NCBI GenBank assembly: GCA_963806755.1
Contig: CAWDZR010000016.1
Span: forward strand, 247,249-311,248
Origin: an uncultured Gemmatimonadales bacterium
GTDB taxonomy: Bacteria; Gemmatimonadota; Gemmatimonadetes; Gemmatimonadales; JACORV01
DNA length: 64,000 nt
Direction: 5' to 3'
The translations under genes were made by a program, and so were the position numbers. Positions within the stretch are counted from its first letter, which is position 1; every line of letters begins with the position of its first letter. The notes under the pieces were generated by a model. That model saw nothing but the letters and a program-made list of their open reading frames with translations. It ran no database searches and was not told the DNA's origin. Below, piece after piece: positions 14,423 to 55,074 of this stretch.

Positions 14423-14484
14423 GGAGGAGGTTGGTGGGTTGTAGGTGGTGGGGGGTGGGGACGACAACCCACAACCCACCACCC
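14423..14484. repeat. Heptamer-repeat hairpin between convergent genes (G-rich arm facing ACAACCC-ACAACCC-ACCACCC)
   Basis: GGTTGGT GGGTTGT AGGTGGT GGGGGGT GGGG (14429-14460) is followed by ACAACCC ACAACCC ACCACCC (14464-14484). GGTGGGTTGT (14433-14442) is perfectly complementary to ACAACCCACC (14471-14480). This is probably a bidirectional terminator. Confidence 0.75.
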
Positions 14485-14485
14485 G

Positions 14486-15202
14486 CTAGCCACTCACCGT
14501 TGCCCTCAGCTCCACCTGCCCCACCTGCGGCCTGCGGAACAGATCCCGCCATCCGTCTTTCCGCCGCACCACCAGCACCACGTCGCCCACCGGCTCCGGC
14601 TCGAGTCCAAGCAGGGTCACGAACAGCACGTCCGGAACGCGCGGCGGCAGGCTCACCCGCCAGGCGTGCCCGTGCCACTCGACCGGCATGGCGCCTCCGC
14701 CGGCACGGCGCCAGGCGCCGCGCCGCAGCGGACGGTCCACGAAGACGTCGTCCTCCACCTTGGTCACGTCGGGCGCGAGCCGCTCCCCGTCCCGGAAGAA
14801 CAGCGGGTCGAAGGGCTCGCCTTCCTGGCGGGCGTAGTTGGCCTCGACCGCGTCGTCGAAGTCCTCGAGCGCGGCGGCGTCGGCGCGCCACTCGAGGTGG
14901 TGCCGGATCTCGTGCGTGAGCGTCTCCCACGCCTCCTGCCGCCAGTCGAATCCCGGCGCTGCGGCGGCGAGCGCCGCGAACGACCCGTAGTGCAGGAGCA
15001 CGGAGGAACGCAGCTCGGCCCCGCCCTCGCCGGGCGCGCCGAAGCTGTGGGGGACGCACTCGCCCAGCGTGTACACGCCGGCCCTGAGCGGGTGCGGTAC
15101 GGTCTTGGGGGTCACCTCGACGCCGGCGATGCCGGCCTGGAATTCGGCCGGCAGCTCGCGCGTCATCTCGCGGATCATGGCCTCGAAGTCGCGGCGCCGC
15201 AT
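14486..15202 (-). CDS. Zincin-like metallopeptidase-domain protein (HExxH) with uncharacterised C-terminal half
   Basis: ORF 14486..15202. The sequence contains ETLTHEIRHHLEW. The N-terminal roughly 130 aa resemble the small 'metallopeptidase family protein' class. Confidence 0.65.
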   Translation of the reverse strand: MRRRDFEAMIREMTRELPAEFQAGIAGVEVTPKTVPHPLRAGVYTLGECVPHSFGAPGEGGAELRSSVLLHYGSFAALAAAAPGFDWRQEAWETLTHEIRHHLEWRADAAALEDFDDAVEANYARQEGEPFDPLFFRDGERLAPDVTKVEDDVFVDRPLRRGAWRRAGGGAMPVEWHGHAWRVSLPPRVPDVLFVTLLGLEPEPVGDVVLVVRRKDGWRDLFRRPQVGQVELRATVSG

Positions 15203-15229
15203 CGCCCTTTCGTGCCGGCGGGCCGGCCG

Positions 15230-16685
15230 TCAGGCCAGCGCCGCCGCCACCCGCTCGACGAGCGGGGCGAAGGCCAGGTCGCGGCCGAGCACCGTCGTCG
15301 CCAGGCGGGCGGCGTCGTCGCGCTGGCCGCGCGCGAACAGCTCCCGCAGCCACCCGCCGGAGCGGCGGTCCAGGAACCAGTCCTCGCCGAAGCGGTCGCG
15401 CAGGGAGGCGGCGAGCAGCGCCTCGAGCTGCCAGGCCCGCAGGTAGCGCGCGGCGTAGAAGGCGTCGTCGAGGTCCAGCAGCGCGTCTTCGGGCGGGTAG
15501 CGGAAGCCCGTCGCCTCGCTGAGGATGGGCGCGTAGCGGCGGGCGCCCTCCTCGAGCGTGGGCGCCGCGTGCAGCTCCACCTCGTAGCGCAGCTTGGCCG
15601 CGTACCGGCGCAGGATCGCCAGCAGGGCGAACGCCTGTGATCGCGCGAACGCCCGCTCGCGCGCGCCGGAGAGGCCCACGTACCGCCGCAGCCACGAGGG
15701 CTCCGCCACCATGTGCTCGAACAGCATCGCGAAGGCCTCGGTCACCGAGTTGTCGCCCAGCCAGCGATGCTCGAAGGGAAGGCCGGGCGCGGTGTTGGCG
15801 AAGTGCTGCGCGTGCCCCAGCTCGTGCCAGAAGGCACGGTAGTCGGCCTGCCCGCCGAACGGCCGGATCACCAGGTACACCTCGTCCGGCACCCGGGCGG
15901 GCGAGCAGAACGCGCGGGAGCGCTTGCGCTCGCGGTCGTCGGTGTCGTAGCGGATGCGGCCGTCCGCCTCGGCGTCGAGCCCCATGGCGGAGAGCTGCTT
16001 GCGCGCGATGGCCAGGATCTCGCCGCCGGGGAAGAACTCGTCGTAGCCCGCGCCGCGGAACAGATACGCGGCGTCGGCGCGTTCGGCCTCGCCGGGCGCG
16101 ATCCCGAGCTCGCGTGCCAGCTCCTCCCGGAGCGCACCGTCGTACAGGGCGGCGGTGGCGGCGAGAAAGTCCCCACAGCTCGCGGCCAGCGCCGCGAGGT
16201 CCACGCCCGACAGCCGCGAGCGCGCGGCCACCGTGTCGCCGAGCCCGAGGCCGGCGAGCAGGCGGCGCTCGAGGGTCAGCCGCTCCCGGCGCAGGGCCGA
16301 GGGCTCCGCCAGCACCGCGCGGCGCGCGGCGTCGATCGCCAGGCGGCGCTGGCGGTCCGGCTCGTTCGCCGTCACGATGGCCGCGCGCTGGTAGGGCAGC
16401 GTCTCACCGCCGGGCAGCGTGATCCGGGCCTCCGCCTCCCACGCGTGCAGCCGGTCGTCGAGCGCCGCCGCGGCGCGGCCCACGCGGTTATCCACCACCC
16501 ACTCGAGCAGCGCGCGGTGGCCGCGCGCCGTCTCGACCGCCCGTCGTCGGCCAGGTCGGGATAGCGGCCGAAGATCTCCGCGAAATGCGACTCGGCCGCG
16601 AGGCCGGCGCCGGTGCGGTAGCTCTCGCGCCCCAGCTCCGCGGCACATGCGCCTCCCCGCGCCGGCGCAGCTCCTCGACTGTCAT
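15230..16685 (-). pseudogene. M3/oligoendopeptidase-F-like zinc metallopeptidase; reading frame broken twice near the 5' end (sequence error or pseudogene)
   Basis: The main body is ORF 15230..16648, with FWHELGHAQH. The N-terminus is split over three frames: [14 protein letters not shown] (from ATG 16685), then [36 protein letters not shown], then [18 protein letters not shown]. Frame changes lie near 16644 and 16540. Confidence 0.75.
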
Positions 16686-18020
16686 CCCTCGAGGCGCTCG
16701 GCGAGGTAGGCGGCCAGGCCGCGCGGCGTCCACCCGCTCCTGCGCCAGCGTGTCGCGGTGCCGCACCGTGACCGTCCCGTCCTGCGTGGTCTGGCCGTCC
16801 ACGGTGATCGCGAACGGCGTGCCCGCCTCGTCCTGGCGGCGGTAGCGGCGCCCGATCGAGCCGCCGTCGTCGTAGAAGGCCGTGAACCGACCGCGCAGGT
16901 CGTCGTAGATCTTCTGGGCGATCTCCGGCATCCCGTCCTTCTTCACCAGCGGCAGCACCGCCGCCTTGATCGGCGCCAGCGCCGGCTTGAGGCGCAGCAC
17001 CACCCGCGTCTCGCCCTCCACCTGCCTCCTCGTCGTACGCGTCGCACAGCAGCGCCAGCGCCGTGCGGTCCGCGCCCACCGACGTCTCCACGATGTACGG
17101 GAGGTAGCGCTCGTTCCGCTCCTGGTCGAAGTACTCGAGCTTCTTGCCCGACGCCTGCTGGTGCCGCGACAGGTCGAAGTCCGTGCGGTTGTGGATCCCC
17201 TCGAACTCGTTCCACCCGAACGGGAACTCGTACTCGATGTCGTACGCCGCCTTGGCGTAGTGCGCCAGCTCGTTCGCCTCGTGCTGGTGGAAGCGCAGCC
17301 GCTCCGGCTCGCAGCCCGAGCCCCACGTGCCACTGCATCCGCTCGTTCCGCCAGAACTCGAACCACTCCTCGTCCGTGCCCGGCCGCACGAAGAACTGCA
17401 TCTCCATCTGCTCGAACTCGCGGGTGCGGAAGATGAAGTTCCCCGGCGTGATCTCGTTGCGGAACGCCTTGCCGATCTGCGCGATGCCGAACGGGATCTT
17501 CTGCCGCGAGCCCTGCAGCACGTTGAGGTAGTTGACGTAGATCCCCTGCGCCGTCTCCGGCCGCAGGTAGACCACCGCCGCGTCCTCCTCGACCGGGCCC
17601 ATGAACGTCTTGAACATCAGGTTGAACATCCGCGGCGCGGTGAGCGAGCCGCGCGTCCCGCACGCCGGGCACTGCCCGTCGGGCTGCCCCGGCGTCCCCT
17701 TGATCCGCGGGTCGTCGGCCCGGAAGCGCTGCTTGCAGTGCTTGCAGTCCACCAGCGGATCGGTGAAGCCCGCCACGTGGCCCGACGCCTCCCACACCTT
17801 CGGCGACATCAGGATGCCCGCGTCGAGCCCCTCGATGTCGTCGCGCGCGTGGACCATCGCGCTTCCACCACCGGTCCTTGATGTTGCGCTTCAGCTCGAC
17901 GCCCAGCGGGCCGTAGTCCCAGACCGAGCCGAGCCCGCCGTAGATCTCCGAGGACTGAAAGACGAAGCCGCGCCGCTTCGCCAGCGACACCAGCTTCTCC
18001 ATGCGATCGTTGTCCGCCAT
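16682..18020 (-). pseudogene. glyQS: Glycine--tRNA ligase (homodimeric GlyQS type), frame broken about 4 times (probably sequence errors)
   Basis: The conserved GlyRS sequence is spread over three frames. [52 protein letters not shown] is in ORF 16488..18158. [37 protein letters not shown] is in ORF 16943..17857. [47 protein letters not shown] is in the frame of ORF 16372..17091. [30 protein letters not shown] returns to the first frame, and the tail [11 protein letters not shown] lies in another frame. Shifts are near 17858, 17315, 17027 and 16716. Confidence 0.85.
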
Positions 18021-18192
18021 GAGCCCTGCTGCATGAGAGCACGAGAATGAACAGCCGGAGGGGGAAGAAACTAGCCCCGGCCCGAGGGGGGAGCAAGCGC
18101 GCGCGGAGGTCGCCGCCCGCGCAGGCACCGCCGGGCGCCCGGACCCCGGCCGCCCCACCGGGAGCCATCGTAACCGATTTCAAGCCAGAGAC

Positions 18193-18221
18193 TTGCGCAT
18201 TTCGCAACAGCTGCCTATCTT
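18193..18221 (+). promoter_or_regulatory. Sigma70-like promoter of the PqqD/kinase/Cys-rich cassette; the transcript would be nearly leaderless
   Basis: TTGCGC (18193-18198), an exactly 17-nt spacer, then TATCTT (18216-18221). ATG 18230 lies only 8 nt after the -10. The -35 sits inside the palindrome TTGCG-n5-CGCAA (18193-18207). Confidence 0.45.
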
Positions 18222-18229
18222 CGCGATCC

Positions 18230-18508
18230 ATGGCGATACAGGGCGCTCAGCGCACGCCCACGGCGCGCCCCGATGTAGTCCTCAGGCGAGTGGGATCCGA
18301 GTGGGTCCTGTACGACGCCGCCAGGGAACGCGCCCACGTCTTGAACCTCACCGCCGCCGTCATCTGGACTTACTGCGACGGCACGTTCCTGCCGTCGGAC
18401 ATCGCGGACGCGATCGCCCGGGAAGTGCCCGGTCTCGACGTGGCGCGCATCGGCACCGACATCCACGACGTGCTGCGCCGGTTCGCCGACGAGGGGCTGC
18501 TGCAATAG
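18230..18508 (+). CDS. PqqD-family peptide chaperone (RiPP-recognition-element-like), 92 aa
   Basis: In-frame part of ORF 18047..18508 from ATG 18230. PDVVLRRVGSEWVLYDAARERAHVLNLTAAVIWTYCDGTFLPSDIADAIAREVPGLDVARIGTDIHDVLRRFADEGLL follows the PqqD pattern (x-vl-d..sg..h.LN.tA..iW..cDG..t..ei...l...). Confidence 0.85.
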   Translation: MAIQGAQRTPTARPDVVLRRVGSEWVLYDAARERAHVLNLTAAVIWTYCDGTFLPSDIADAIAREVPGLDVARIGTDIHDVLRRFADEGLLQ

Positions 18509-19368
18509 CGCTCCGGCGGCGGATCGCCGTCGCGCCCCTGGTCCTGGAGTTCGCGAGCGACGACGGGATCGCCGCCCGGGCGCTGGAGGCCCTGTACCAC
18601 GCGGCGCCGGCCAGCACCGCTCCACCGACCCTGCGCTACGAGCTCCGGCGCGCCGGGCCGCGGCCGGGGGACGGATACGAGGCGGCGAGTCCCGCGCAGC
18701 CGGTGTTCGGGCCCACGACCCTCGCGGAGGCCTGGGCCTTCCTCGAATGGCGCGCGACCGAGGACGTGCTCAACGCCGCGACGCCGGACTGCGTGTTCAT
18801 GCATGCGGCGGCGGCGGTGCTGGGCGGGCGCATGGTGCTGCTGGTGGGCGACGCCGGGGCGGGCAAGTCCACGCTCCTCGCTCACCTGCTGTTGCGGGGA
18901 CATGGAGTACTCGGCGACGACGTGGTGCGATTCGCAACGCGCGACGGGTTGTTCTCGGCCGTCGGGCGCTCGGTCAAGCTGGATGATAAGGCGTTGCGCG
19001 GCATGCCGTTGATTGCGGCGCTGTGTGCCGCGGGGACCATCGGAACGCTTCTTGCCGCAGGATGCTACTACGTGAGCCCTGCAGCGGTGCGGAGAGACTG
19101 GCAAGCCGAGGCGGCGCGGCCTTGGGGGGTCGTGCTGCTCGAGGCCTCGTCGCGTGACGGGGCCAGCGGCGTGCGGCGGGCGAGCGCGGGCGAGGCCGCG
19201 GTCCGGTTCGCGCAGCGGCTGCTCGGGGGCGCCGGCCTGCCGGCGCCGGCGCGGGCCGAGGCGACGGTGCGCCTGCTGGAGAGCCTGGCGGACGTGGCGG
19301 CGTATCGCGCCGTCGGCCGCGATCCGGCGCGCGTCGCGGAGGCGCTGGAACGGGAGGCGATGACATGA
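18505..19368 (+). CDS. HPr-kinase-related P-loop kinase (HprK C-terminal-domain-like); start codon unresolved
   Basis: Frame of ORF 18193..19368. The sequence FMHAAAAVLGGRMVLLVGDAGAGKSTLLAHLLLRGHGVLGDDVVRF parallels HprK (GxSGxGKS..L..rGH.LvaDD). Walker A is at 18847-18873. There is no ATG, GTG or TTG between 18193 and 18800. ATA 18505 overlaps the PqqD stop (ATAG). About 287 aa if it starts there. Confidence 0.75.
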   Translation: MALRRRIAVAPLVLEFASDDGIAARALEALYHAAPASTAPPTLRYELRRAGPRPGDGYEAASPAQPVFGPTTLAEAWAFLEWRATEDVLNAATPDCVFMHAAAAVLGGRMVLLVGDAGAGKSTLLAHLLLRGHGVLGDDVVRFATRDGLFSAVGRSVKLDDKALRGMPLIAALCAAGTIGTLLAAGCYYVSPAAVRRDWQAEAARPWGVVLLEASSRDGASGVRRASAGEAAVRFAQRLLGGAGLPAPARAEATVRLLESLADVAAYRAVGRDPARVAEALEREAMT

Positions 19369-19892
19369 GCCTGCGCACCCTGGGCCTGCTGTCGGGCGGC
19401 GTCAGCCGCCGCGAGATGCTCGCGGCGCTGGCGCGCTGGAGCGTCCCGACGGTATTGACCATGACGCTGATCACGCGCGAGGCGCGGGCCGCGGCCTCCT
19501 GCCCGCCGTGCACCAAGAAGACCGGCGGCGTGTGCCGCGCGTGCACGATGAACCAGATCCTCAACTGCCAGTGCGAGCCGTGCCTCGGGGCGCCGTACTG
19601 TGCCAACGGCGCACGCGCGTCCGTGTCGCGGCCGGGGGCGATGACGGCGCCGTCGAGCGGGCTCGTCCCCGGCGGGACGCCGTCGCCGCTGTCGCCGTCC
19701 AACCCGGACCTGCTGAGCCCGTACTTCCGCACGCTGCGCAACCAGCCCGCGTTCTCGGGGCAGAACCCATTCGACCGCAGGCCCGGTGCCTTCGGCGGAT
19801 CCGGACTCCTCGGGGTGCCAGCCGATACGGGGCTGCGCTCGCGGGGTGGCCTGTACGATCGGCTGCGCCCTGATGCCCGGAGGCCGTTCTGA
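19365..19892 (+). CDS. Orphan cysteine-rich protein with twin-arginine-type leader and P/G/S-rich tail (175 aa)
   Basis: ORF 19365..19892. The ATG overlaps the kinase stop (ATGA). GC3 is very high. The leader is MSLRTLGLLSGGVSRREMLAALARWSVPTVLTMTLITREARA/AAS. The core is C-x2-C-x7-C-x2-C-x7-C-x-C-x2-C-x5-C (nt 19500-19601). The tail is low-complexity and rich in proline. Confidence 0.75.
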   Translation: MSLRTLGLLSGGVSRREMLAALARWSVPTVLTMTLITREARAAASCPPCTKKTGGVCRACTMNQILNCQCEPCLGAPYCANGARASVSRPGAMTAPSSGLVPGGTPSPLSPSNPDLLSPYFRTLRNQPAFSGQNPFDRRPGAFGGSGLLGVPADTGLRSRGGLYDRLRPDARRPF

Positions 19893-19963
19893 GCCTGCTC
19901 CCGTCCGCCCCTGATGCCCGGCGCGCCACGCTGCCGGGCACGCACCAGCTGCACCTGCGCGAC

Positions 19964-22270
19964 GTGCTGCGCGTCCTGCTGCTCCATTGGAAGATCGTCG
20001 GCCTGGTCACGCTCCTGGTCGCGGTGGGGGCCTTCTCCTCGGCCCGGCGGGCCGTCCCGCGCTACCGCTCGGACGCCTCCTTCCAGGTGGGCTCGAAGAA
20101 GTACGCCGCGCCGCGCCTCGACGAGCCGCAGGTCAACGAGCTCGACATCAAGACCGATCCGGTCCTGTCCGAAGCCCTGATCCTCAAGACGCAGAACCTG
20201 GCGCTGGCGGTGGCGGACTCGCTCGGCCTGCAGCTCCGGCTGCTCGAGGACCGGGTGCCCCGCGGCAGCGTGCTCGACGACGCGCACGTGGCCCTGGCGG
20301 CGCCCAACGACACGTTCCTGCTCTACCTCAAGGGCCCGGCCGGGTGGGAAGTGCGGGACGCGCACGGGCGGGTGCTGGACGCGGGGACGTACGACACGCC
20401 GGTGCGGGACTCGGCGCGGGGGTTCGCCTTCACGGTCCACCCCTCCGCCGTGCCGCGGGTGCTCCGCTTCGCGATCATCTCGCCGGTGGCGGCCGCCAAC
20501 GAGGTGCGCGGCGGGCTGGGGTTCGACATCCAGGAGGGGACGACGGTCGTGGGGGCGTACTACGACGGCGCCGACCCCTCCCTCGCCCCCGACATCCTGA
20601 ACGAGGCGCTCGCCGTCCTGCGGTGGACCGGCGTGGCGCGCCTGCAGGAGATGTCGGTGCAGCGCGAGGCGTTCCTCAAGAGCTCGCTCGACGAGGCGGG
20701 GCATCAGTACCGGCAGGCGCTGGCGGCGCTCCAGCAGTACAAGGAGGCGGAGCACACCACCGACCTCACGGCCGAAGAGCAGGCCCTGCTCAACTCGGTG
20801 CAGATGTTCGACCGCGAGAAGCAGCAGGAACGGGAGGACCTCGCCCTGCTGCAAAGCATCCTCGACCAGTCGAGCGAGGGGAACATCACGCTCGAGATGC
20901 TCAACCGGCTGGCGGCGATGCCGAACATCGACAAGAACACGGCCATCGCCTTCCAGATGCAGAACCTGCTGAAGCTGTACGACGACCGCCGCAGCCTCAC
21001 CGCGGGCACGCTCGGCCTGCGGGAGGACAACCCGCAGGTCCAGGCGCTCGACCAGCGGATCGTGCAGGCCGGGCGGGCGCTGCGGCAGGCCGCGCAGGCC
21101 AGCGTCCAGAGCATGCAGGCGGACATCGCGGCCCTCGACCAGCGCATCGGCACGCTCCGTACCCAGCTCGCGACCTATCCGGGCAAGGAGACGCAGATCG
21201 GGCAGCTGGAGCTGGACGCGGCCCTGTACAACGACACCTACCGCTATCTGCTGACCCAGCTCCAGGCCGCGCAGATCAGCTCGGCCACGATCGCGCCCTA
21301 TGTGGACGTGGTCGAATCGGCGACGGTGGCCGCGCCGATCGGCGTGAGCACGCGCCAGAAGGTGACGATCGGGCTGCTGGTGGGCCTGCTGCTGGGGGTG
21401 GTGGCGGCGTTCTTCCTCGAGTACCTCGACCAGACGATCAAGTCGGCGGTGGACGTGGAGCGGGCGCTGGAGACCCCGGTGCTCGGCCTCATCCCGATCG
21501 ATCCGCGCAGCGAGCGCGACGGGCGGCGCGGCGGCCGCCGCCGGGCGGTCATTCCGCTCATCACCAGCGCCGCCCCCGACGACCCGACGAGCGAGGCGTA
21601 CCGGGCCCTGCGCACCAACGTCACGTTCGTGAGCGCCGAGGAGCGGGCGCTGCAGCTTGTGTGCATCACGAGCCCGGGGCCCGGCGAGGGGAAGAGCACG
21701 ACCGCGGCCAACCTGGCCATCACGCTGGCGCAGCAGGGGACGCACACCCTGCTGGTGGACGCGGACCTGCGGCGGCCCATCGTGCACAAGGCCTTCAACC
21801 TCGTGCAGGAGCCAGGGCTCACCGACATTCTCGTGGGCACGGCCACCCTGCGCGAGGCCGTGCGGCCCAACGTGATCCCCAACCTCGACGTGCTCCCGGG
21901 AGGCGCGCTGCCGCCCAACCCCTCCGAGCTGCTGGGCTCCGAGGCGATGCGCCGCCTGACCGCGGAGCTGCGGACGCAGTACCAGAGCGTCATCTTCGAC
22001 ACGCCGCCGGCGCTGGCCGTGACCGATGCCACGGTGCTCGGGGCGGGCGCGGACGGCGTCATCCTCGTGCTCCGCGCCGGCGAGACCGACGAGCTCGCGG
22101 CCCAGCGCGCGGTCGAGGTGTTCCGCCGCGTGCAGGTGCGCATCGCGGGCACGGTCCTGAACGCCGTCGAGAAGCAGCGGGTGCGCTACTACCAGTACTA
22201 CAACTACAGCCGGGAGTCGCCGCAGGGGCGGCTGGCGGGGTGGCGGCACAAGATCGCGAGCTGGCTGTAG
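19964..22270 (+). CDS. Polysaccharide co-polymerase fused to BY-kinase (GumC/Wzc-type tyrosine autokinase)
   Basis: ORF 19964..22270 (GTG). Features: N-terminal TM plus a Wzz-like coiled-coil region, a second TM, Walker A SPGPGEGKSTTAANLA, Walker A' LLVDADLRRP, VIFDTPP, and a C-terminal tyrosine cluster RYYQYYNYS. Confidence 0.9.
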   Translation: MLRVLLLHWKIVGLVTLLVAVGAFSSARRAVPRYRSDASFQVGSKKYAAPRLDEPQVNELDIKTDPVLSEALILKTQNLALAVADSLGLQLRLLEDRVPRGSVLDDAHVALAAPNDTFLLYLKGPAGWEVRDAHGRVLDAGTYDTPVRDSARGFAFTVHPSAVPRVLRFAIISPVAAANEVRGGLGFDIQEGTTVVGAYYDGADPSLAPDILNEALAVLRWTGVARLQEMSVQREAFLKSSLDEAGHQYRQALAALQQYKEAEHTTDLTAEEQALLNSVQMFDREKQQEREDLALLQSILDQSSEGNITLEMLNRLAAMPNIDKNTAIAFQMQNLLKLYDDRRSLTAGTLGLREDNPQVQALDQRIVQAGRALRQAAQASVQSMQADIAALDQRIGTLRTQLATYPGKETQIGQLELDAALYNDTYRYLLTQLQAAQISSATIAPYVDVVESATVAAPIGVSTRQKVTIGLLVGLLLGVVAAFFLEYLDQTIKSAVDVERALETPVLGLIPIDPRSERDGRRGGRRRAVIPLITSAAPDDPTSEAYRALRTNVTFVSAEERALQLVCITSPGPGEGKSTTAANLAITLAQQGTHTLLVDADLRRPIVHKAFNLVQEPGLTDILVGTATLREAVRPNVIPNLDVLPGGALPPNPSELLGSEAMRRLTAELRTQYQSVIFDTPPALAVTDATVLGAGADGVILVLRAGETDELAAQRAVEVFRRVQVRIAGTVLNAVEKQRVRYYQYYNYSRESPQGRLAGWRHKIASWL

Positions 22271-22302
22271 CGGGAGCCGCGACGCCGGCGGCGGCGAAGC
22301 AC

Positions 22303-22335
22303 CAAGGGGTCGGCCTCGGCGAGGCTGACCCCTTG
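22303..22335. terminator. GC-rich hairpin between convergent wzc-like gene and purA
   Basis: CAAGGGGTCGGCCTC-GGC-GAGGCTGACCCCTTG forms a 15-bp stem with one G:T pair. The palindrome CCGCGGCGCCGCGG follows at about 22353-22368. Confidence 0.6.
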
Positions 22336-22370
22336 TCGCGTTCCGTCCCCATCCGCCGCGGCGCCGCGGG

Positions 22371-23651
22371 CTAGACCTCGATCAGCTGCTCCCGCTTCGT
22401 GCCCACGCCCACGTACCGGATCGGGGCGCCCGACAGCTCCTCGAGCCGGTCGAGGTAGCGTCGCGCCTCGGTCGGCAGGTCCTCCAGCCGCCGCGCGTCG
22501 CCGGTGCGCCGGCGCCATCCCGGCAGCCGTTCGTACACCGGCTGCACGCACTCGAGCGCCGCGACGTTGTCCGGCAGGTCGTCGAGCCGCGCCCCGTCCA
22601 ACCGGTAGTGGGTGCACACCGGGACCGTGTCGAAGGTGTCGAGGACGTCGAGCTTGGTCACCGCCAACCCGGTGAGGCCGTTCACGCGCACGGCGAACCG
22701 GACCACCACCGCGTCGAACCAGCCGCAGCGCCGCGGCCGTCCCGTCGTGGCGCCGAATTCGCCGCCCAGGGTGCGGAGCCGCTCGCCCTCCTCGGGGCTC
22801 GCCTCGGTGGGCAGCGGGCCGTTGCCGACGCGGGTGGTGTAGGCCTTCACCACGCCGAGCACCGCGTCGATCGCCGTCGGGCCGATGCCGGCGCCGACGG
22901 ACGCGCCGCCCGCGGTGGTGTGCGACGACGTGACGAACGGGTAGGTGCCGTGATCCACGTCGAGCAGCGCGCCCTGCGCGCCCTCGAGCAGCACGTTCCC
23001 GCCGGCGGCCAGCGACTCCCACACCAGCTTCCCCGCGTCCGCCACGAACGGGAGCAGCCGCGGGGCCACCGCGCCGAGCGCCCGCTCCACGTCGCCGGCG
23101 GCGCAGCGCTTGGTCGAGCCGGCCAGCTCCAGCATGCGGTTGGCGTGCTCGCAGCCGGACCGTACCAGCTTGGCGAGGTTGGCCGGGTGCCGGAGGTCGC
23201 CCACGCGCACGCCGCGCCGGCCGACCTTGTCCTCGTACGCGGGCCCGATGCCCCGGCTCGTGGTGCCGATCGTCTTGCTCCGCGCGCTCTCGGTGTCGAG
23301 CAGCTTGTGATAGGCCAGGACGAAATGGGCGCGATCGCTGACGATGAGCCGCCCGTCGATCGCGATCCCGCGCTCGAGCAGGGCGTCGATCTCGTGGAAC
23401 AGGGTCTCCGGGTCGAGCACGACCCCGTTGCCGATGACGCACCGCGTGCCCGGATGCAGGATGCCCGCCGGGATCTGGTGCAGCACGAATTCCCCGCCGG
23501 GCGCGTCCACGGTGTGGCCCGCGTTCGCGCCGCCCTGGTAGCGGACGACCAGGTCGGCCCGCTCGGCGAGGGCATCCACGACCTTCCCCTTCCCTTCGTC
23601 GCCCCACTGGGCGCCGACGACGACGAGGCAGTGGACCTCAGGAGAGAACAT
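22371..23651 (-). CDS. purA: Adenylosuccinate synthetase
   Basis: ORF 22371..23651. VVVGAQWGDEGKGKVVD (P-loop), GGANAGHTV, TTSRGIGPAYEDK and GTKRE are present. Confidence 0.96.
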   Translation of the reverse strand: MFSPEVHCLVVVGAQWGDEGKGKVVDALAERADLVVRYQGGANAGHTVDAPGGEFVLHQIPAGILHPGTRCVIGNGVVLDPETLFHEIDALLERGIAIDGRLIVSDRAHFVLAYHKLLDTESARSKTIGTTSRGIGPAYEDKVGRRGVRVGDLRHPANLAKLVRSGCEHANRMLELAGSTKRCAAGDVERALGAVAPRLLPFVADAGKLVWESLAAGGNVLLEGAQGALLDVDHGTYPFVTSSHTTAGGASVGAGIGPTAIDAVLGVVKAYTTRVGNGPLPTEASPEEGERLRTLGGEFGATTGRPRRCGWFDAVVVRFAVRVNGLTGLAVTKLDVLDTFDTVPVCTHYRLDGARLDDLPDNVAALECVQPVYERLPGWRRRTGDARRLEDLPTEARRYLDRLEELSGAPIRYVGVGTKREQLIEV

Positions 23652-23688: not shown

Positions 23689-23696
23689 AAAACGGC

Positions 23697-49120: not shown

Positions 49121-49219
49121 GTGATCTCCCGAACGAGGGCAGGCTCCCCGGATCCAGGCTGCGTGAGAATGCCATAAAGCAATACAGAACCGGGCAGGAA
49201 TCCGCCAGAGACGGCCGCC

Positions 49220-50473
49220 GTGCTCCGACCGACTATCTTGTCCGGACCTGTGGATACCACCGTCCTCGTCGTCTTCGCGGCCGTCTACCTCGGCATGCTG
49301 CTCGGCGAGATCCCGGGCCTGGCCCTCGACCGCGCCGGCGTCGCGCTGCTCGGCGCCATCGCGCTCGTGGCGGCCGGGCGCCTGAGCGTCGGCGGCGCGT
49401 GGAACGCGGTGGACGTTCCGACCCTGGCCCTGCTCCTGGGACTGATGGTGGTCTCGGCGCAGTTCCGTCTCGGCGGCTTCTACGCCCGGGTGAGCGGATG
49501 GCTCGCCGGCCAGGAGGGACGCCCGGAGGCGATCCTGGCGCTGCTGGTGGCGACGGCGGGCCTCCTGTCCGCGCTGCTCGCCAACGACATCGTGTGCCTC
49601 GCCATGGCCCCGATCCTCGCCGCCGGATGCGCGCGGCGCGGCCTCGACCCGGTCCCGTTCCTGCTCGCCCTCGCGGCCGCGGCCAACGTGGGCTCGGCGG
49701 CGACCCTGATCGGCAATCCCCAGAACATGCTGATCGGCCAGACCCTGCATCTCTCCTTCCACGGCTACCTGCTGGACGCGCTCGTGCCGTCGCTGCTCGG
49801 CCTCGGCGTCGTGTGGGCGGTGATCGCGTGGGGATTTCGCGGCCGCTGGCAGCGGGCCGTGACGCTGACCCGCACGGAGCAGCGCGACCTCGCCTTCGAC
49901 CGCTGGCAGACCGCCAAGGGGACCGCCGTGCTGGCGGCGCTGGTCGGCGTCTTCCTCTTCGCCCCCGTGCCGCGCGAGGCCGCCGCGCTCGCCGCGGCCG
50001 GCGTGCTGCTGCTCAGCCGGCGGACCGCGTCGCGGGACATCCTCGGCCTGGTGGACTGGAACCTGCTGGTCCTGTTCGTGGGGCTGTTCGTCGTCAACCA
50101 CGCGTTGCTCGCCTCGGGCATGATGGGCGCCGCGGTCTCCGGCCTGCGCGGGGCCGGGGTGAACCTGGGGCGCGCCCCGTGGCTGTTCGGCGTCACGGCC
50201 GGCCTGTCCAACCTGGTGTCGAACGTGCCCGCGGTGATGCTGCTGCTGCCGGCAGCGCAGGGCCATCCGCAGGCCGGGCCGATCCTCGCCCTGGCCAGCA
50301 CGCTCGCGGGCAACCTGGTGGTCGTGGGGAGCATCGCGAACATCATCGTCATCGAGCAGGCCCGCCGCCTCGGCATCGCGATCGGCTGGCGCGCGCACGC
50401 GCGCATCGGGGTGCCCATCACGCTGCTGACCCTGGCCATCGCCGCGCTCTGGCTCTGGCTGCGAGCGGGATGA
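49220..50473 (+). CDS. ArsB/NhaD-superfamily anion permease (SLC13/citrate-transporter-like)
   Basis: ORF 49220..50473 (GTG). There are about 11-12 hydrophobic segments. ANDIVCLAMAPIL, GSAATLIGNPQNMLI and NLVSNVPAVMLLLP are typical of this superfamily. Confidence 0.8.
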   Translation: MLRPTILSGPVDTTVLVVFAAVYLGMLLGEIPGLALDRAGVALLGAIALVAAGRLSVGGAWNAVDVPTLALLLGLMVVSAQFRLGGFYARVSGWLAGQEGRPEAILALLVATAGLLSALLANDIVCLAMAPILAAGCARRGLDPVPFLLALAAAANVGSAATLIGNPQNMLIGQTLHLSFHGYLLDALVPSLLGLGVVWAVIAWGFRGRWQRAVTLTRTEQRDLAFDRWQTAKGTAVLAALVGVFLFAPVPREAAALAAAGVLLLSRRTASRDILGLVDWNLLVLFVGLFVVNHALLASGMMGAAVSGLRGAGVNLGRAPWLFGVTAGLSNLVSNVPAVMLLLPAAQGHPQAGPILALASTLAGNLVVVGSIANIIVIEQARRLGIAIGWRAHARIGVPITLLTLAIAALWLWLRAG

Positions 50474-50568
50474 CGATCGGAGGATCCGCCGGGGTCCTCT
50501 ACGCCCTGGTGGCCTGCATCTGGCTCGTGCCGGACCGGCGCATCGAACGGGCCCTGGCGCGCCGGTGA
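50470..50568 (+). CDS. Possible 32-aa single-TM micro-protein translationally coupled to the permease
   Basis: ATG 50470 overlaps the permease stop (ATGA). The sequence is MTIGGSAGVLYALVACIWLVPDRRIERALARR. GC3 is high. It is the tail of ORF 49399..50568. I recognise no family. Confidence 0.35.
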   Translation: MTIGGSAGVLYALVACIWLVPDRRIERALARR

Positions 50569-50626
50569 GCGATCCGGCCCTCGGCGCCTACGCCCCGGAG
50601 CGCCGCCTGCGTAGCTTCCCGCTACC

Positions 50627-52084
50627 ATGACGAACTCCACGGCCCCAGCCCCCTTCGACCCGCGACACGACGACATCCAGGCGCTCGGCCGCGCGACCGG
50701 CGACTGGATCGCGCGGCACTTCGACGCGCTGCGAGACCTGCCCGTCGTGCCCGACACCACGCCTGCCGCGGTGTTCGCGCACTTCGCCCAGCCGCTGCCC
50801 GACGAGCCGACGCCGTGGCCCGCGCTGCTCCAGCGGTTCGAGCGCGAGATCGTGCCCAACAGCTTTCACCTGCCCAGCCCCCGCTATTTCGGGCTGATGA
50901 ACCCGACGCCGCTGCCGATCGCGGTGTTCGCGGAGGCCCTGGCGGCGGCGCTCAACCAGAACGTCGGCGCGTGGCACCACAGCCCGGCGGCCACGGCCGT
51001 CGAGCAGGTGGTGATCCGGTGGCTGTGCGACCTGGCCGGCTACCCGGCGGGCGCGTTCGGCAGCCTGACGCCCGGCGGGTCGCTGGCGAACACCACGGGC
51101 CTCAAGATCGCGCTCGCCGCGCGGGTGCCGCGCAGCACCGCGCACGGTGTGTGGGGCCTCGAGCGGCGGCCCGTGCTGTACGCCTCCGCCGAGGCGCACT
51201 TCTCGATCCGGAAGAGCGCCAACATCCTCGGCCTCGGCGGCACGGACGGCCTGCGGACGGTGCCGGTGGACGCGCACTCCCGCCTCGACGTCGCGGCGTT
51301 GCGCCGCATGGTCGCGCAGGACCGCGCCGCGGGCCTGGACCCGTTCTGCGTCGTGGGCATCGCCGGAGTCACGAGCAACGGCGTGATCGATCCGCTCGAC
51401 GCGATCGCCGACGCCGCCCGCGACCTCGGCCTGTGGTTCCACGTGGACGCCGCGTACGCCGCCGGCGGCCTGATGAGCGACGCGCTGCGGCCGCGGTTCC
51501 GCGGCATCGAGCGCGCCGACTCCATCACGATGGACCCGCACAAGTGGTGGTTCATGCCGTATCCGTGCGGGGCCACCCTGACGCGCGACGGCGACGCCGG
51601 CCGCCGGGCGTTCTGGTCGGACGCGGTCTACATCCCGCAGACCGACGACGCGATCGAGTACCGGGACCACGGCCTGGCGGGCTCGCGCCCCTTCAGCGCG
51701 CTCAAGCTGTGGATGGCGATGCAGATGGTGGGGCGCCGCGCCTACGGCCGCATGGCCGAGGCGCAGGTCGCGCTGACCGAGCGGTTCGTCGCGGAGCTGA
51801 CCTCCGACGGCACGTGGGAGTCGGTGACGCCGGTGGACACGGCGATCGCGGCGGTCCGGTTCACGGGGGCGTCGGCGGGCGGCGAGGGGCGCGGCGATGC
51901 CCGGACCGACGGACGGCAGGACGAGATCGTCCGTCGCGTGCTCGCGTCACGTCGCCACTGGATATCGCCCACCACGACCGTGGGGAAGCGGGCGATCCGG
52001 GTGATGGTGATCAGCTACCTGACCCGCTGGGAGCACCTCGAGGAGCTGATCGCGGAGCTCAGAAAGGCGGCGAAGGACCTATGA
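50627..52084 (+). CDS. Group II pyridoxal-phosphate-dependent amino-acid decarboxylase
   Basis: ORF 50627..52084. HLPSPRYFGLMNPTP, GGSLAN, HVDAAYAGG and DPHKWWFMPYPCG (PLP lysine) are present. Confidence 0.88.
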   Translation: MTNSTAPAPFDPRHDDIQALGRATGDWIARHFDALRDLPVVPDTTPAAVFAHFAQPLPDEPTPWPALLQRFEREIVPNSFHLPSPRYFGLMNPTPLPIAVFAEALAAALNQNVGAWHHSPAATAVEQVVIRWLCDLAGYPAGAFGSLTPGGSLANTTGLKIALAARVPRSTAHGVWGLERRPVLYASAEAHFSIRKSANILGLGGTDGLRTVPVDAHSRLDVAALRRMVAQDRAAGLDPFCVVGIAGVTSNGVIDPLDAIADAARDLGLWFHVDAAYAAGGLMSDALRPRFRGIERADSITMDPHKWWFMPYPCGATLTRDGDAGRRAFWSDAVYIPQTDDAIEYRDHGLAGSRPFSALKLWMAMQMVGRRAYGRMAEAQVALTERFVAELTSDGTWESVTPVDTAIAAVRFTGASAGGEGRGDARTDGRQDEIVRRVLASRRHWISPTTTVGKRAIRVMVISYLTRWEHLEELIAELRKAAKDL

Positions 52085-53439
52085 AGAAGGTGATCGGCAC
52101 CGGGCTCGCGCTCCTGCTGGGCGCGGGGTCGGCCGCGCGGGCCCAGGGCCCCCGGATCCCCGACGACGTGACGGCGAACGTCCGCGCCCGGGTGGACGAC
52201 GGGTGGAGCGTCGGGATCGTAGTGGGCGTCGTGGACGGCACGGGCGCGCGCTTCTTCAGCTACGGCCGGACCGCCAGGACCGGCGGTCAGCCCGTGAACG
52301 AGCGCACCGTCTACGAGATCGGCTCGATCACGAAGGTCTTCACGGCGGTCACCCTCGCGGACATGGCCATCCGGCGCGAGGTCGGCCTGGACGACCCGGT
52401 GCAGCGCTACCTGCCCGACTCGGTCCGCGTGCCGAGCCGGAACGGGAAGGCGATCACGCTCCGCCTCCTCTCGGCGCAGCGCTCGGGCCTGCCCCGCATG
52501 CCGACCAATTTCGCGCCCGCCGACCCCGCCAACCCCTTCGCAGACTACGGCGCCGCGAAGCTGTACGCCTTCCTCGACGGCTACGCGCTCCCCCGGGACC
52601 CGGGCGCGAGCTACGAGTACTCGAACCTGGGCGTGGGGCTGCTGGGCTTTGCCCTGGCACGCGGCGCCGGCACGAGCTACGAAGGCATGATCCTCCGGCA
52701 CGTCATCGATCCGCTCCATCTGGCGGACACCCGCGTCACGTTGACCCCCGATCTCCGCGCCCGGCTCGCCCACGGCTACGCCGGGGGGCAGGAAGTGGGC
52801 AATTGGGACCTCGACGCCCTCGCCGCGGCCGGCGCCATCCGCTCGACCGCCGCGGACATGGCGACGTTCCTCTCCGCGGCCATGGGCCTCGTGCACACGC
52901 CGCTCGACTCGGCGTTCCGACTGACCGAGGCGATCGAGTTCGACGCAGGGCCCGGGATGCGGATCGGGCTGGGGTGGCACGTCATCGGGCCCGACAGCTC
53001 CGCGGTGATCTGGCACAACGGCGGCACCGGCGGCTACCACGCGTTCATCGGCTTCGACCCGCGGCGGAGGGTCGGCGTCGTGGTGCTCTCGAACTCGACG
53101 CTGAGCATCGACGACATCGGCTTCCACATCCTGAATCCGGCGTTGCCGCTGCAAACCGTGCGCGCCGCCATCGCCATGCCGGCGGAGTCGCTCGACGCAT
53201 ACGTGGGCACGTACCAGCTCGCGCCGACATTCGCGATCGCCGTCCGCAGGGAGGGCGCCAGCCTCGTGGCGCAGGCCACCGGCCAGGGCGCGAACCCGAT
53301 CTTCCCGTCCGCCAGGGACGAGTTCTTCTTCAAGGTGGTGGACGCGCAGATCAGCTTCGTGCGGGATTCCACCGGGAAGGTGACGTCGTTGATCCTGCAC
53401 CAGGCCGGGCGCGACCTGCCCGCCCCCCGCTCCCCGTGA
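52081..53439 (+). CDS. Secreted serine hydrolase of the beta-lactamase/PBP4-like (class C fold) family
   Basis: In-frame 3' part of ORF 50815..53439. ATG 52081 overlaps the decarboxylase stop (ATGA). The signal is MKKVIGTGLALLLGAGSAARAQ. The S-x-x-K motif is in YEIGSITKVFT, the Y-x-N motif in YEYSNLG, and HNGGTGGY is present. Confidence 0.88.
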   Translation: MKKVIGTGLALLLGAGSAARAQGPRIPDDVTANVRARVDDGWSVGIVVGVVDGTGARFFSYGRTARTGGQPVNERTVYEIGSITKVFTAVTLADMAIRREVGLDDPVQRYLPDSVRVPSRNGKAITLRLLSAQRSGLPRMPTNFAPADPANPFADYGAAKLYAFLDGYALPRDPGASYEYSNLGVGLLGFALARGAGTSYEGMILRHVIDPLHLADTRVTLTPDLRARLAHGYAGGQEVGNWDLDALAAAGAIRSTAADMATFLSAAMGLVHTPLDSAFRLTEAIEFDAGPGMRIGLGWHVIGPDSSAVIWHNGGTGGYHAFIGFDPRRRVGVVVLSNSTLSIDDIGFHILNPALPLQTVRAAIAMPAESLDAYVGTYQLAPTFAIAVRREGASLVAQATGQGANPIFPSARDEFFFKVVDAQISFVRDSTGKVTSLILHQAGRDLPAPRSP

Positions 53440-53446
53440 GCCAAGG

Positions 53447-54940
53447 CTAGACCAGGCCCCTCAGGCGCTCCAGCAGCTTCACCATCGCCCACGTGTCGAG
53501 CTTGCAGTACGCCAGCAGGTCGGCACGCAGCGGCGACGGCGCGCGCTCGAACAGGTCCAGCTGGCCCGGCCCCGCGGCCTCGCCTTCTCCCAGCAGCAGG
53601 CGCTCCAGATGGATGCTCGCCGTGTCCCCGTCCGCGATCGCGAGGCCCGCGTAGGTCAGCCCGGGCACCAGCGCCGGCAGCACCGACTTCAGGCTGAACG
53701 AGCCGTGGAACGCCGGGTGGTACACGTGGTTCCGCACCACGGGCAGCAGGTCCACCAGCTTCGCTTCCAGCTCGAGCAACGGCTCGGCCAGCCCCGGGAC
53801 CGCCTGGGCGAGGCCGCGGATGCAGTGCCGCTCGAACGACGCGTTGTACGCGACCACCGCGGTCGCGCCGGACGTCGCCGCGACGAGGCGCCCGGCCAGG
53901 GCCGGCCGCGGGTCGCCGGGGCCGTCGGCCAGCCACTCGTCGTGCGACGGCGCGCCGTCGCCGCGATCCAGGAAGAAGCTGAACTGCACCGGCACCGCGT
54001 CGAACGGCCGGCAGCCGGTCCAGACGGGGATCGCGGGCCCCACGCTCTCGAAGTCCAGGAAGCCGAGCGGACTCCGCGCGAACGGCGCCAGCGCGTCGGC
54101 CAACCCCGGCGCCACGATCAGGCGGCCCGACTGCACGGCGCGCCGCTGCCGCTCGGCGATCTCGCCGAGGTCGAGGTCGCCGGGCAGGTCCGCGATCGTC
54201 GCGTAGCCCTGCGCCTCCAGCGCCGCCGCCCGCTTGCCCCAGCGATACAGCGTGCCCACGTGGTGCTCGGGAAGCGCGGGCCAGCAACGCTCGAGGAACG
54301 GGCACTCGTGGGGTGTCGTGCAGTGATCGCCGACCGGTACCTCGGGCCGCGGCCCGTCCAGCACCGCGACCTGCTCCGCGATCCGGTCCGGGACCTCCGG
54401 CAGCAGCCGCTCCACCCGCTCGGTCACGTCGTCCCGGGCGAACAGGTTGGAGAGGTCCGGATAGCGGCACTCCCGGCTGAGGTGCATCAGCTCGACCCGC
54501 GGCACGTCCACTCCGGCGTGGCGGAGCACGTAGGCCTGGATCGCCGCGTCGGGGATGTGCTCTTCCTTGACCGAGGTCGTGGACTTGACCTCGACCAGGG
54601 TGAAGCCGCGACCTCCCGCCTGCCGCTCCAGGATGTCCACCGCGACGAAGACGTCGTCGGCCACGAACGAGGCCTCGTAGACGGCGGCAGCACCCTTCGC
54701 CAGGAGGTCCGCCGTGCGCGACACGCGCTCGTCGGCGGCGCCGTGCGGCAGGCTCACCAGGACGCCGCCGGGCACGTAGCCGCGCGCCGCGGCGCCGACG
54801 CGATGGCCGCGGTCGAAGGTGGCCCGCAGCAGGAAGCCGGGCACCAGCTCGGGCGCTCCCGGCTCGTGCACGCGCCACCACAGCTGCTTCAGGCACTGCA
54901 GGCCGGCGGTGAAGCGGGACTTGGAGAGGCGGTGCGGCAC
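53447..54940 (-). CDS. DUF2779-like protein: N-terminal PD-(D/E)xK (Cas4/RecB-like) module + C-terminal DnaQ-like exonuclease-looking module
   Basis: ORF 53447..54940 (GTG). The N-terminus LSKSRFTAGLQCLKQLWW is the type I associate with DUF2779. D..LVEVKSTTSVKEEH is a D-EVK nuclease-type motif. Further motifs are LDFESV..IP and AYNASFERHCI (ExoI/ExoII-like). Confidence 0.65.
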   Translation of the reverse strand: MPHRLSKSRFTAGLQCLKQLWWRVHEPGAPELVPGFLLRATFDRGHRVGAAARGYVPGGVLVSLPHGAADERVSRTADLLAKGAAAVYEASFVADDVFVAVDILERQAGGRGFTLVEVKSTTSVKEEHIPDAAIQAYVLRHAGVDVPRVELMHLSRECRYPDLSNLFARDDVTERVERLLPEVPDRIAEQVAVLDGPRPEVPVGDHCTTPHECPFLERCWPALPEHHVGTLYRWGKRAAALEAQGYATIADLPGDLDLGEIAERQRRAVQSGRLIVAPGLADALAPFARSPLGFLDFESVGPAIPVWTGCRPFDAVPVQFSFFLDRGDGAPSHDEWLADGPGDPRPALAGRLVAATSGATAVVAYNASFERHCIRGLAQAVPGLAEPLLELEAKLVDLLPVVRNHVYHPAFHGSFSLKSVLPALVPGLTYAGLAIADGDTASIHLERLLLGEGEAAGPGQLDLFERAPSPLRADLLAYCKLDTWAMVKLLERLRGLV

Positions 54941-54961
54941 GGTGGAAAACTCTAAGGGCCC

Positions 54962-55074
54962 GGGGTTAGGGGCTAGGGGCTAGGGGTTAGGGGCTAGGGA
55001 AGGACAAAGGCGCCACGAGGCTCGCGGCGCCCTTGTTCGTCTGACCCCTGATCCCTCTAGACCCTGACCCCTTG
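54962..55074. repeat. GGGG(T/C)TA x5 heptamer array, central hairpin, then C-rich TGACCCC/TGATCCC units
   Basis: GGGGTTA GGGGCTA GGGGCTA GGGGTTA GGGGCTA GGGA occupies 54962-55000. A hairpin lies at 55005-55035. TGACCCC TGATCCC TCTAGACCC TGACCCC occupies 55042-55071. It sits between the DUF2779-gene start (54940) and the rpoC stop (55077). Confidence 0.9.
55005..55035 (-). terminator. Hairpin downstream of rpoC (probable terminator)
   Basis: 55005-55018 (CAAAGGCGCCACGA) pairs with 55022-55035 (TCGCGGCGCCCTTG). That is 12 of 14 positions with a 3-nt loop. There is only a weak T-tract on either strand. Confidence 0.5.

Follow-up and report, generated by a model that had tools for sequence, protein, structure and literature searches.

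Five intergenic spacers in a 64,000-nucleotide (nt) stretch of DNA from an uncultured Gemmatimonadales bacterium (contig CAWDZR010000016.1, positions 247,249 to 311,248; hereafter the window, numbered from its first letter) carry tandem arrays of 7-nt units. These heptamer arrays are real, statistically strong and lineage-wide, and three of the five loci (hsp20, secY-adk and rpoC, or arrays 1, 4 and 5) are inverted array pairs forming hairpins of 70-170 nt. A complete element is laid out as a nearly C-free G-rich arm beginning a few nt past a stop codon (5-8 nt in these three hairpins), then a variable centre, and a complementary C-rich arm that lies shortly before the next gene. We lean, with confidence a little better than even, towards the explanation that the arrays are built by slippage, are retained as transcribed stem-loops at gene ends, and are local members of a heptamer class that extends throughout the Gemmatimonadota. 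They belong to one class with the GGGAATC arrays of Xanthomonas and the short tandemly repeated repetitive (STRR) and GGGGAYT arrays of cyanobacteria. What is added here is the hairpin reading of three loci, a general polarity rule, the independence of that rule from G-quadruplex (G4) formation, and a conserved element between secY and adk.

All five arrays listed in an initial annotation of the sequence were recovered at the same positions, and its claim that each spacer has tandem 7-nt units of its own is borne out: the best autocorrelation lag was 7 or 14 in 8 of 8 arms (permutation p <= 0.009), and no unit is common to two loci within the 64-kb window. Tandem Repeats Finder (TRF) reported period 7 at positions 14464, 23667, 31618, 31709, 54962 and 55041. 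Array 3 was the weakest (lag-7 match 0.52, lag-14 match 0.65, p 0.009) and too degenerate for TRF, which was silent there; lag-7 matches reached 0.71 in the G-rich arm of array 1 (p 0.001) and 0.78 in the 3' arm of array 5. When three copies and no more than 2 mismatches were required throughout, the window contained seven lag-7 segments, five of them noncoding, and its noncoding DNA (5,050 nt, or 8%, as left by a gene caller based on GC content at third codon positions, GC3) contained zero segments at lags 8-12.

The same signal dominates a pooled sample of 81 sequences, made up of the window and 80 Gemmatimonadota loci around secY (1.24 Mb; arrays of at least 2.8 copies). Period 7 gave 63 noncoding versus 8 coding arrays, and period 8, the next behind it among periods that are not multiples of 3, gave 12 versus 14; the corresponding counts were 0 versus 4 for period 4, 1 versus 9 for period 5, and 1 versus 5 for period 10. 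Set against 20 dinucleotide shuffles, in which the mean number of noncoding period-7 arrays was 3.05 and the maximum 7, the 62 observed arrays represent the kind of excess over shuffled sequence that the initial annotation had anticipated. The density of period-7 arrays was 56-103 per Mb in Gemmatimonadota versus about 19 per Mb in unrelated contigs (L105-L160, GC content 0.50), where period 7 was still the commonest period that is not a multiple of 3.

The description of the arrays as tandem heptamers stands, and 'STRR-like' is a fair label for the form of tandem intergenic heptamers, but arrays 1, 4 and 5 are in fact inverted-pair hairpins (z -4.2 to -8.5). RNA folds of the paired hairpins in the window all beat shuffled sequence (z -3.2 to -9.0). 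The array 1 hairpin sits exactly between two convergent stop codons, its C-rich arm overlapping the stop of the convergent gene (14486-14488). Its inverted repeat has 31-nt arms (14429-14459 and 14468-14498, 74% complementary) and a minimum free energy (MFE) of -47.5 kcal/mol on the plus strand (z -4.4) and -39.0 kcal/mol on the minus strand (z -3.2). The arms of array 4 are 67 nt long (31618-31684 and 31693-31759, 79% complementary; MFE -91 kcal/mol), and the spacer with short flanks (191 nt) reaches -102.5 kcal/mol (z -9.0); the array ends 24 nt from the adk start. Array 5 folds with an MFE of -68 to -75 kcal/mol and its 3' arm ends 21 nt before the GTG start of the DUF2779 gene (54940). Nested within it is a GC-rich hairpin followed on the sense strand by TTTGTCCTT, a combination that resembles a terminator with a weak U-tract. 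The same layout is found after rpoC in a related contig, L161, where GCCGTCR x5 stands right past the stop and is followed by a strong GC hairpin; the array 5 sequence GGGGYTAGGGG was found in 0 of 160 loci. All three paired elements occupy plausible ends of transcription units: two convergent genes meet at array 1, rpoC ends at array 5, and at array 4 secY ends upstream of a promoter-like TTGACC-N17 sequence. Termination, stabilisation or processing of transcripts may take place at them, to judge from sequence. Among the four roles that the initial annotation had offered, RNA structure is the best supported.

Position and strand follow strong rules. The pooled sample contains 29 inverted pairs; a further 25 arrays have no partner, contig ends cutting off some of them. 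The 5' arm of the pairs, which typically starts 3-14 nt past the preceding open reading frame (ORF), is G-rich in 17 cases, neutral in 9 and C-rich in 3. In co-directional spacers, 25 arrays with G on the sense strand are stop-proximal and 2 start-proximal; of those with C on the sense strand, 21 are start-proximal and 7 stop-proximal. The C-rich strand in 5' leaders, to which the initial annotation had drawn attention, was reproduced in the 105 related loci over which the strand rule was tested: 19 arrays ending at most 30 nt before a start were C-rich on the sense strand and 0 were G-rich, many of the 19 being mutual orthologues. A hairpin with its G arm first reads alike on both strands, so neighbouring genes see G-rich sequence after the stop and C-rich sequence before the start, and the strand rule is thereby explained.

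Genes behind C-rich arrays seldom carry a Shine-Dalgarno (SD) motif; an SD-like sequence was present in 4 of the 19, versus 49% of other called genes. The organism uses SDs, because most ribosomal-protein genes of the window have one, and hsp20 has the AAGGAGG reported earlier. The absence of an SD at all four starts that abut an array had also been claimed; it was confirmed for purA (whose upstream 30 nt, with 5 G and 19 C, form a C-rich leader), ftcD and the DUF2779 gene, but not for adk, which is preceded by GAGGT outside the repeat arms. Relatives have GGAG, GAGG or GGGG at the same position before adk.

We picture the following mechanism. Slipped-strand or template-switch replication would build the arrays and keep them uniform, and these would persist past the ends of reading frames at which a transcribed stem-loop brings benefit or does no harm. 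The stem-loop could then punctuate operons by forming 3' ends, by attenuation or by stabilising transcripts, as past hsp20, past rpoC and past secY before the promoter-like site. The G-first polarity might be selected, with SD-like and structure-prone G-rich sequence kept off start codons, and in genes behind a C-rich array, which are mostly SD-less, translation would probably begin on a leader that is poor in G and free of structure.

The secY-adk element is the best-conserved example. Of 26 close relatives (Adk 70-100% identical), 23 have a homologous hairpin, which always leads with its G-rich half; the clade consists of L001, L003 and 21 metagenome contigs whose Adk proteins are 70-89% identical. 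The spacer in these relatives measures 139-191 nt and folds end to end (z -2.9 to -9.1). Units of the two arms co-vary by subclade, GTGAG with CTCAC and GTGAT with ATCAC, and within the GTGAG group (12 diverged sequences) variation is confined to the 2-nt linkers, the GTGAG/CTCAC cores being invariant. Lengths in compared pairs of relatives are near-equal (163/163, 165/165, 173/173 and 174/174) with gaps of 1-3 nt; steps of 7 nt were not seen in these comparisons, and L087 and L088 are identical. An exact look-up of the window's Adk matched no contig, and the comparisons are accordingly with relatives, not with the same strain. The element looks vertically inherited. A search with the window units over the window and the loci found GTGAGNNGTGAG confined to the secY-adk spacer. 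A candidate claim, that the spacer evolves more slowly than synonymous (third codon) sites, was dropped: a 7-nt block-shuffled partner still gave 0.79-0.82 gapped identity, and the identity figure is inflated because of low complexity.

Within the C-rich arm of array 4 lies a promoter-like pair of hexamers (Table 1). Relatives (L081-L101) keep TTGACC or TTGCCC, a gap of 16-17 nt, and TCTCTT, TCACTT, TATCTT or CACACT in this arm, and the counterpart of TTGACC in the 5' arm is variable (TTCAAG, TTCAGC or TTGGGG). The hexamer pair therefore appears to be conserved for its own sake and is probably a promoter for adk, even though the second hexamer of the window has no A at position 2 and the pair was not called by a consensus scan, which found zero promoter-like sites in positions 14000-33500. 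A TTGACC-N17-TAGATT sequence also stands before rpsL in L163 (4811-4839).

In the fold predicted for array 4, the base of the stem joins the secY stop region to the adk GTG, and the predicted folds of about 10 of 22 relatives show a like contact, which suggests translational coupling as far as the fold models go. A more elaborate version, which we hold to be a long shot, is a self-maintaining hairpin that punctuates the operon: the stem base would join the stop to the next start, and the terminating ribosome would melt it and be handed over across 140-190 nt.

Table 1. Arrays, associated signals and adjoining genes in the window (genes adjoining arrays named by Pfam)
Feature	Position	Strand	Description
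Array 1, context			hsp20 13945-14421 (+); convergent gene 14486-15202 (-)
Array 1, G-rich arm	14423-14460	+	GGAGGAGGTTGGTGGGTTGTAGGTGGTGGGGGGTGGGG; begins 2 nt past hsp20 stop (14419-14421)
Array 1, C-rich arm	14464-14498	+	ACAACCC x2, ACCACCC...; TRF period 7, 3.0 copies
Array 2, context			DHDPS-family gene 23697-24602 (-); purA 22371-23651 (-)
Array 2	23660-23690	-	Unpaired; sense CACCCTG x3; TRF AGGGTGC x2.9, 100% match
Array 3, context			Inositol monophosphatase gene 27864-28688 (+); ftcD 28729-30234 (+)
Array 3	28689-28728	+	CACACAA, CCTGCAA, CCCACCA, CCTACAA; degenerate C/A-rich ftcD leader without SD
Array 4, context			secY 31767-33077 (-); adk 31024-31593 (-)
Array 4, sense 5' arm	31693-31766	-	About 8 GTGAGNN units; begins about 7 nt past secY stop (31767)
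Array 4, sense 3' arm	31612-31684	-	NNCTCAC units
Promoter-like pair in array 4 3' arm	31623-31651	-	TTGACC 31651-31646, 17 nt, TCTCTT 31628-31623
adk SD	31600-31604	-	GAGGT; 7 nt before GTG start (31593), outside repeat arms
Array 5, context			rpoC 55077-59222 (-); DUF2779 gene 53447-54940 (-)
Array 5, sense 5' arm	55041-55076	-	GGGGTCA, GGGTCTA and GGGATCA units; begins 1-5 nt past rpoC stop (55077-55079)
Array 5, inner GC-rich hairpin	54999-55041	-	GGGCGCCGCGAG / CTCGTGGCGCC; 21-nt arms, 81% complementary, 1 nt apart
Array 5, sense 3' arm	54952-54999	-	TARCCCC x5 (plus strand GGGGYTA x5); period 7, 5.4 copies, 90% match

The remaining two arrays of the window are unpaired. Array 2 occupies the 45-nt spacer between the DHDPS-family gene and purA, where its inverted partner was not found, and array 3 takes up the whole 40-nt gap that separates the inositol-monophosphatase gene from ftcD. 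The relatives' loci around secY cover the secY-adk, ftcD and purA spacers, none of them reaching hsp20, and they carry arrays at two of the orthologous sites, the secY-adk spacer and the ftcD leader, as the initial annotation required of orthologous spacers. Orthologous ftcD leaders of close relatives contain clear C-rich heptamer arrays, with CACCCTA units in L085 and L091 and CTCTCAC units in L094, L088, L001 and L096, and more distant relatives have full inverted array pairs at this spacer. Several relatives share CTCTCAC between their own ftcD leader and their secY-adk element, in agreement with the earlier suggestion that the arrays are remnants of a repeat family. The purA leader of L096, the sole close relative compared at that site, has no array. 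The unpaired C-rich arrays before purA and ftcD may be read as half-elements or decayed elements.

A different motif was seen upstream of purA in distant Gemmatimonadota (L014, L068, L015, L057, L058, L007, L024, L011 and L064). There a conserved TAGATT box of -10 type is directly followed by AACGCCCCG...CGGGGCGTTTTTTG, a GC hairpin with a U-tract, and in L068 TTGCTC lies 17 nt before the box. The motif looks like a short leader of attenuator type; the upstream region of purA in the window has no such TAGATT-hairpin leader.

A rival explanation is a neutral by-product, a bias of replication or repair expanding 7-nt units in coding-free DNA and leaving arrays and inverted copies without function. 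The lead of period 7 among the non-multiple-of-3 periods even in unrelated contigs fits this account, as do the variation of units between window loci, the presence or absence of the element at the same spacer among relatives, and a heptamer excess noted earlier in many bacteria, together with the idea of polymerase slippage (Mrazek, in the form in which Rehm et al., PMC4692102, cite it). Yet the position and polarity rules are strong, the secY-adk hairpin is kept at near-constant length though Adk has diverged to 70% identity, both arms switch unit together, and the spacers of relatives differ by short gaps, not 7-nt steps. We judge this explanation to be rather unlikely.

Units are reused within the genomes of some relatives, at two to seven spacers (L044, L080 and L094/L088/L001). 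The extreme case is L044: elements of about 120 nt occupy seven spacers in an 8-kb stretch of ribosomal-protein genes and fall into two families, one with AGGGAAT and ATTCCCT arms and the other with GGCTATC and GATAGCY arms. Arms are near-identical among copies, the variant unit AGGGAGT recurs in the same place in two copies, and the centres are partly alignable; near-identical arms imply spreading or homogenisation of copies inside a genome. Such dispersal would suit selfish elements comparable to miniature inverted-repeat transposable elements (MITEs) or to REPINs, the hairpin doublets of repetitive extragenic palindromic (REP) sequences, with the hairpin copied whole into intergenic sites and tolerated just past stops. 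L080, L017 and L094/L088/L001 likewise reuse one unit at no fewer than two spacers, and in L073 a gene of the GxxExxY family lies inside the loop of an inverted pair. Against this account, each window locus has its own unit, target-site duplications were not seen, the centres are mostly unrelated, the secY-adk element appears to descend vertically, the GxxExxY gene is the only one in 160 loci, and Rehm et al. found no link of the Xanthomonas repeats to mobile elements (PMC4692102). Selfish spread is in our view unlikely.

The L073 case deserves a description of its own. Its 694-nt secY-adk spacer (2834-3528) contains a reverse-strand GxxExxY-family gene of 157 amino acids (aa; TIGR04256, E 6e-39), flanked on both sides by inverted period-8/9 arrays of the CGCAGAGG type; this was the one case of such a gene near arrays in 160 loci, and the literature on a link of this kind was not useful. 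Two other relatives have long, perfect, unpaired arrays with no G/C skew, GTCTGCC x11.7 in the secY-adk spacer of L033 (1459-1540) and CGTGCAG x13.3 in L078 (2829-2921). Both appear to have expanded recently, in contrast to the degenerate window arrays. Inverted heptamer pairs also occur in distant contigs outside the Gemmatimonadota, at 2705-2777 of L152 (GACGCGG / GCGTCTC) and at 10911-10978 of L159 (GGACACG / GTCTCGC); consequently, the paired form is not confined to this phylum.

The G-richness of one arm raises the matter of G4 and i-motif formation, which the initial annotation had listed and which would make the arrays switches of transcription or translation, the G arm being four-stranded in DNA or RNA and the C arm an i-motif. 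Array 5 has six runs of three or more G and its 3' arm is the only window array with at least four such runs; array 1 has several. In addition, GGGAATC oligonucleotides form G4 in vitro (PMC4692102), and L017, of the Gemmatimonadaceae, carries GGGAATC x5 facing GATTCCC. The proposal fits array 5 only and fails in general: at least four runs of three or more G are found in only 6 of 75 arrays, 33 do not have even four GG runs, the best-conserved element, GTGAGNN, is incapable of a three-tetrad G4, and several families (GGCTATC, GTCTGCC and CGTGCAG) have no G/C skew. As a general account it is highly improbable.

More improbable still is that the arrays are phase-variable contingency loci, in which slippage would change copy number and toggle neighbouring genes. 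Short tandem units are the classic substrate of such switching, and typing schemes for Xanthomonas reportedly count GGGAATC among their variable-number repeat loci. The neighbours here, however, are the housekeeping genes purA, adk, secY and rpoC, the arrays fall outside ORFs and have a period not divisible by 3, and the slippage-prone length polymorphism envisaged by the initial annotation did not appear between relatives, whose spacers show gaps of 1-3 nt and no 7-nt steps.

The invariant cores of the secY-adk arms could instead reflect periodic binding sites for a protein or the ribosome, which would read a 5-nt core in each 7-nt unit, such as GTGAG or GAGGTGA. The usual 3' end of 16S rRNA, UCACCUC, is complementary to GAGGTGA. 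Invariance of the GTGAG/CTCAC cores in 12 diverged sequences with varying linkers resembles conservation of sequence, not of pairing, and S1, Csp or CsrA have been proposed to bind the TAACTGA arrays described below (PMC4679880). Homogenisation by slippage accounts for invariant cores as well, though, and the core differs between loci and genomes; because units differ in this way, a single sequence-specific binder is unlikely, and we regard binding sites as very unlikely overall.

Several observations weigh against retention as stem-loops at gene ends, the reading that we nevertheless prefer. The hairpins of arrays 1 and 4 lack the U-tract of a terminator, there being no T-run after the array 1 hairpin on either strand. 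The phylum does possess canonical terminators of GC hairpin and U-tract, in the purA leaders of relatives and in L162, where one follows rpoC and heptamers are absent. The L044 elements lie inside ribosomal-protein operons, where termination is not expected. Arrays occur at similar frequency in convergent (7.0%), divergent (8.1%) and co-directional (8.4%) spacers, the first two figures resting on small numbers. RNAalifold, applied to 12 homologous secY-adk spacers, predicted 35 pairs, nearly all of them invariant and 3 compensatory; because of that invariance, fine-scale covariation speaks neither for nor against pairing. Wobble mismatches are in excess on the sense strand (83 versus 58), a weak excess among non-independent sequences that is compatible with pairing at the RNA level but proves nothing. 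Finally, many relatives have a secY-adk spacer of 6-20 nt with no element, and the element is consequently dispensable.

It is useful to examine how these arrays compare with repeats described elsewhere, given that the initial annotation knew of no equivalent in high-GC genomes outside the cyanobacteria. That statement has to be withdrawn. Xanthomonas, a high-GC non-cyanobacterial host, has GGGAATC / GGGNATC tandem heptamers that are 89-93% intergenic (Rehm et al. 2015, PLoS One, PMC4692102), and TAACTGA arrays are on record too (PMC4679880). The Xanthomonas repeats form 70-75 convergent inverted pairs per genome that are able to make stem-loops, place the G-rich strand within 50 nt past the stop and the C-rich strand before the next ORF, adjoin housekeeping genes, and are transcribed, with function unknown; the GGGGAYT arrays of Nostoc share this stop/start strand geometry (PMC4692102). 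Period 7, noncoding bias, strand geometry and frequent inverted pairs are all found in our arrays as well. They differ from those of Xanthomonas, which has one unit genome-wide and a preference for four G3 tracts, in that units here vary by locus and lineage and are mostly G4-incapable (64 kb of the genome being seen), divergent spacers are not visibly depleted (on small numbers), the arms exceed those of Xanthomonas in length and degeneracy, and a wide clade has kept one element.

Among cyanobacteria, intergenic heptamer repeats have reportedly been known since 1990 (in Calothrix), and the STRR families of heterocystous cyanobacteria (Mazel et al. 1990) are said to consist of few units at many loci. 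Our arrays resemble STRR and the repeats of Nostoc PCC 7120 in being intergenic tandem heptamers and in the four-G-plus-three style of array 5 (GGGGYTA there, GGGGAYT in Nostoc). Unlike STRR, they belong to another phylum with another GC content, and each window locus has its own unit, though relatives reuse units. All of the best 80 genome matches come from Gemmatimonadota, so the host is not cyanobacterial, as that of STRR is.

The TAACTGA heptamers stand before mostly SD-less starts (about 10% with an SD) and also inside ribosomal-protein operons, in Beggiatoaceae, cyanobacteria and Bacteroidetes (MacGregor 2015, PMC4679880). Our arrays likewise lie directly upstream of mainly SD-less starts, ribosomal-protein operons included. 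In contrast, TAACTGA is a single AT-rich unit, nearly always direct (one inverted in 170), with no G/C strand asymmetry.

The REP elements of proteobacteria stabilise upstream mRNA and are partnered by the REP-associated tyrosine transposase (RAYT). The intergenic inverted doublets, long hairpins just downstream of genes and dispersed families (L044) described here recall REP/REPIN, whose arms, however, are not tandem heptamers and whose sequence is conserved genome-wide; neither such a sequence nor a RAYT partner was seen in the stretches covered here. Intrinsic terminators are likewise stable hairpins directly past the stop, and the GC-rich inner hairpin of array 5 with its TTTGTCCTT tail is similar; unlike them, arrays 1 and 4 have no U-tract, and the stems, at 30-67 nt, greatly exceed canonical length. 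A consensus terminator scan of positions 14000-33500 gave 6 sites versus 4.1 expected, which is chance level, and none at the arrays. Rfam 15 at the gathering score gave no match for the arrays; at E <= 1, array 4 alone had sub-threshold matches, to plant microRNA-precursor hairpin models (41.6 bits versus a gathering score of 100). No tRNA was found by a tRNA scan.

The window has a GC content of about 72%, and its SecY is best matched by a metagenome-assembled genome of the Gemmatimonadales (89% identical). The gene rpoB (59369-63871, minus strand) is divided among three reading frames, 59369-59740 (end of Rpb2 domain 6 to domain 7), 59828-62620 (end of domain 2 to domain 6) and 62780-63871 (domains 1-2). 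Since the gene is essential, the splits are probably assembly frameshifts, in which case other parts of the window, G-runs included, may contain small indel errors too. The rpoC gene is one ORF of 1381 aa in the window and two ORFs overlapping by about 30 nt in L163 (511-4810) and L164 (1-4165), where a frameshift or faulty assembly could be the cause. The window has additional genes between rpoC and rpsL (47354-54940), for DUF2779, beta-lactamase-family, PLP-dependent decarboxylase, CitMHS transporter and Big_2/OmpA proteins; rpsL comes directly after rpoC in L163 and L164, and the layout of L161 is intermediate.

A full-text search of the literature found no earlier report of such heptamer repeats in Gemmatimonadota. 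The Gemmatimonadota are a third unrelated high-GC lineage with G-rich arrays after stops, C-rich arrays before starts and frequent inverted pairs, and the recurrence of this geometry in a third lineage speaks for rules that are general and not the quirk of one genus. Furthermore, the polarity rules are here separated from G4 formation, which is beyond the reach of most arrays. Should the ribosome hand-over prove true, tolerance of it would explain how REPIN-like copies colonise ribosomal-protein operons, as in L044, and G-first polarity and the 7-nt unit would be mechanistic requirements, not accidents of slippage. The secY-adk hairpin, present in 23 related contigs with a drifting unit, offers a natural comparative series in which structure can be set against sequence.

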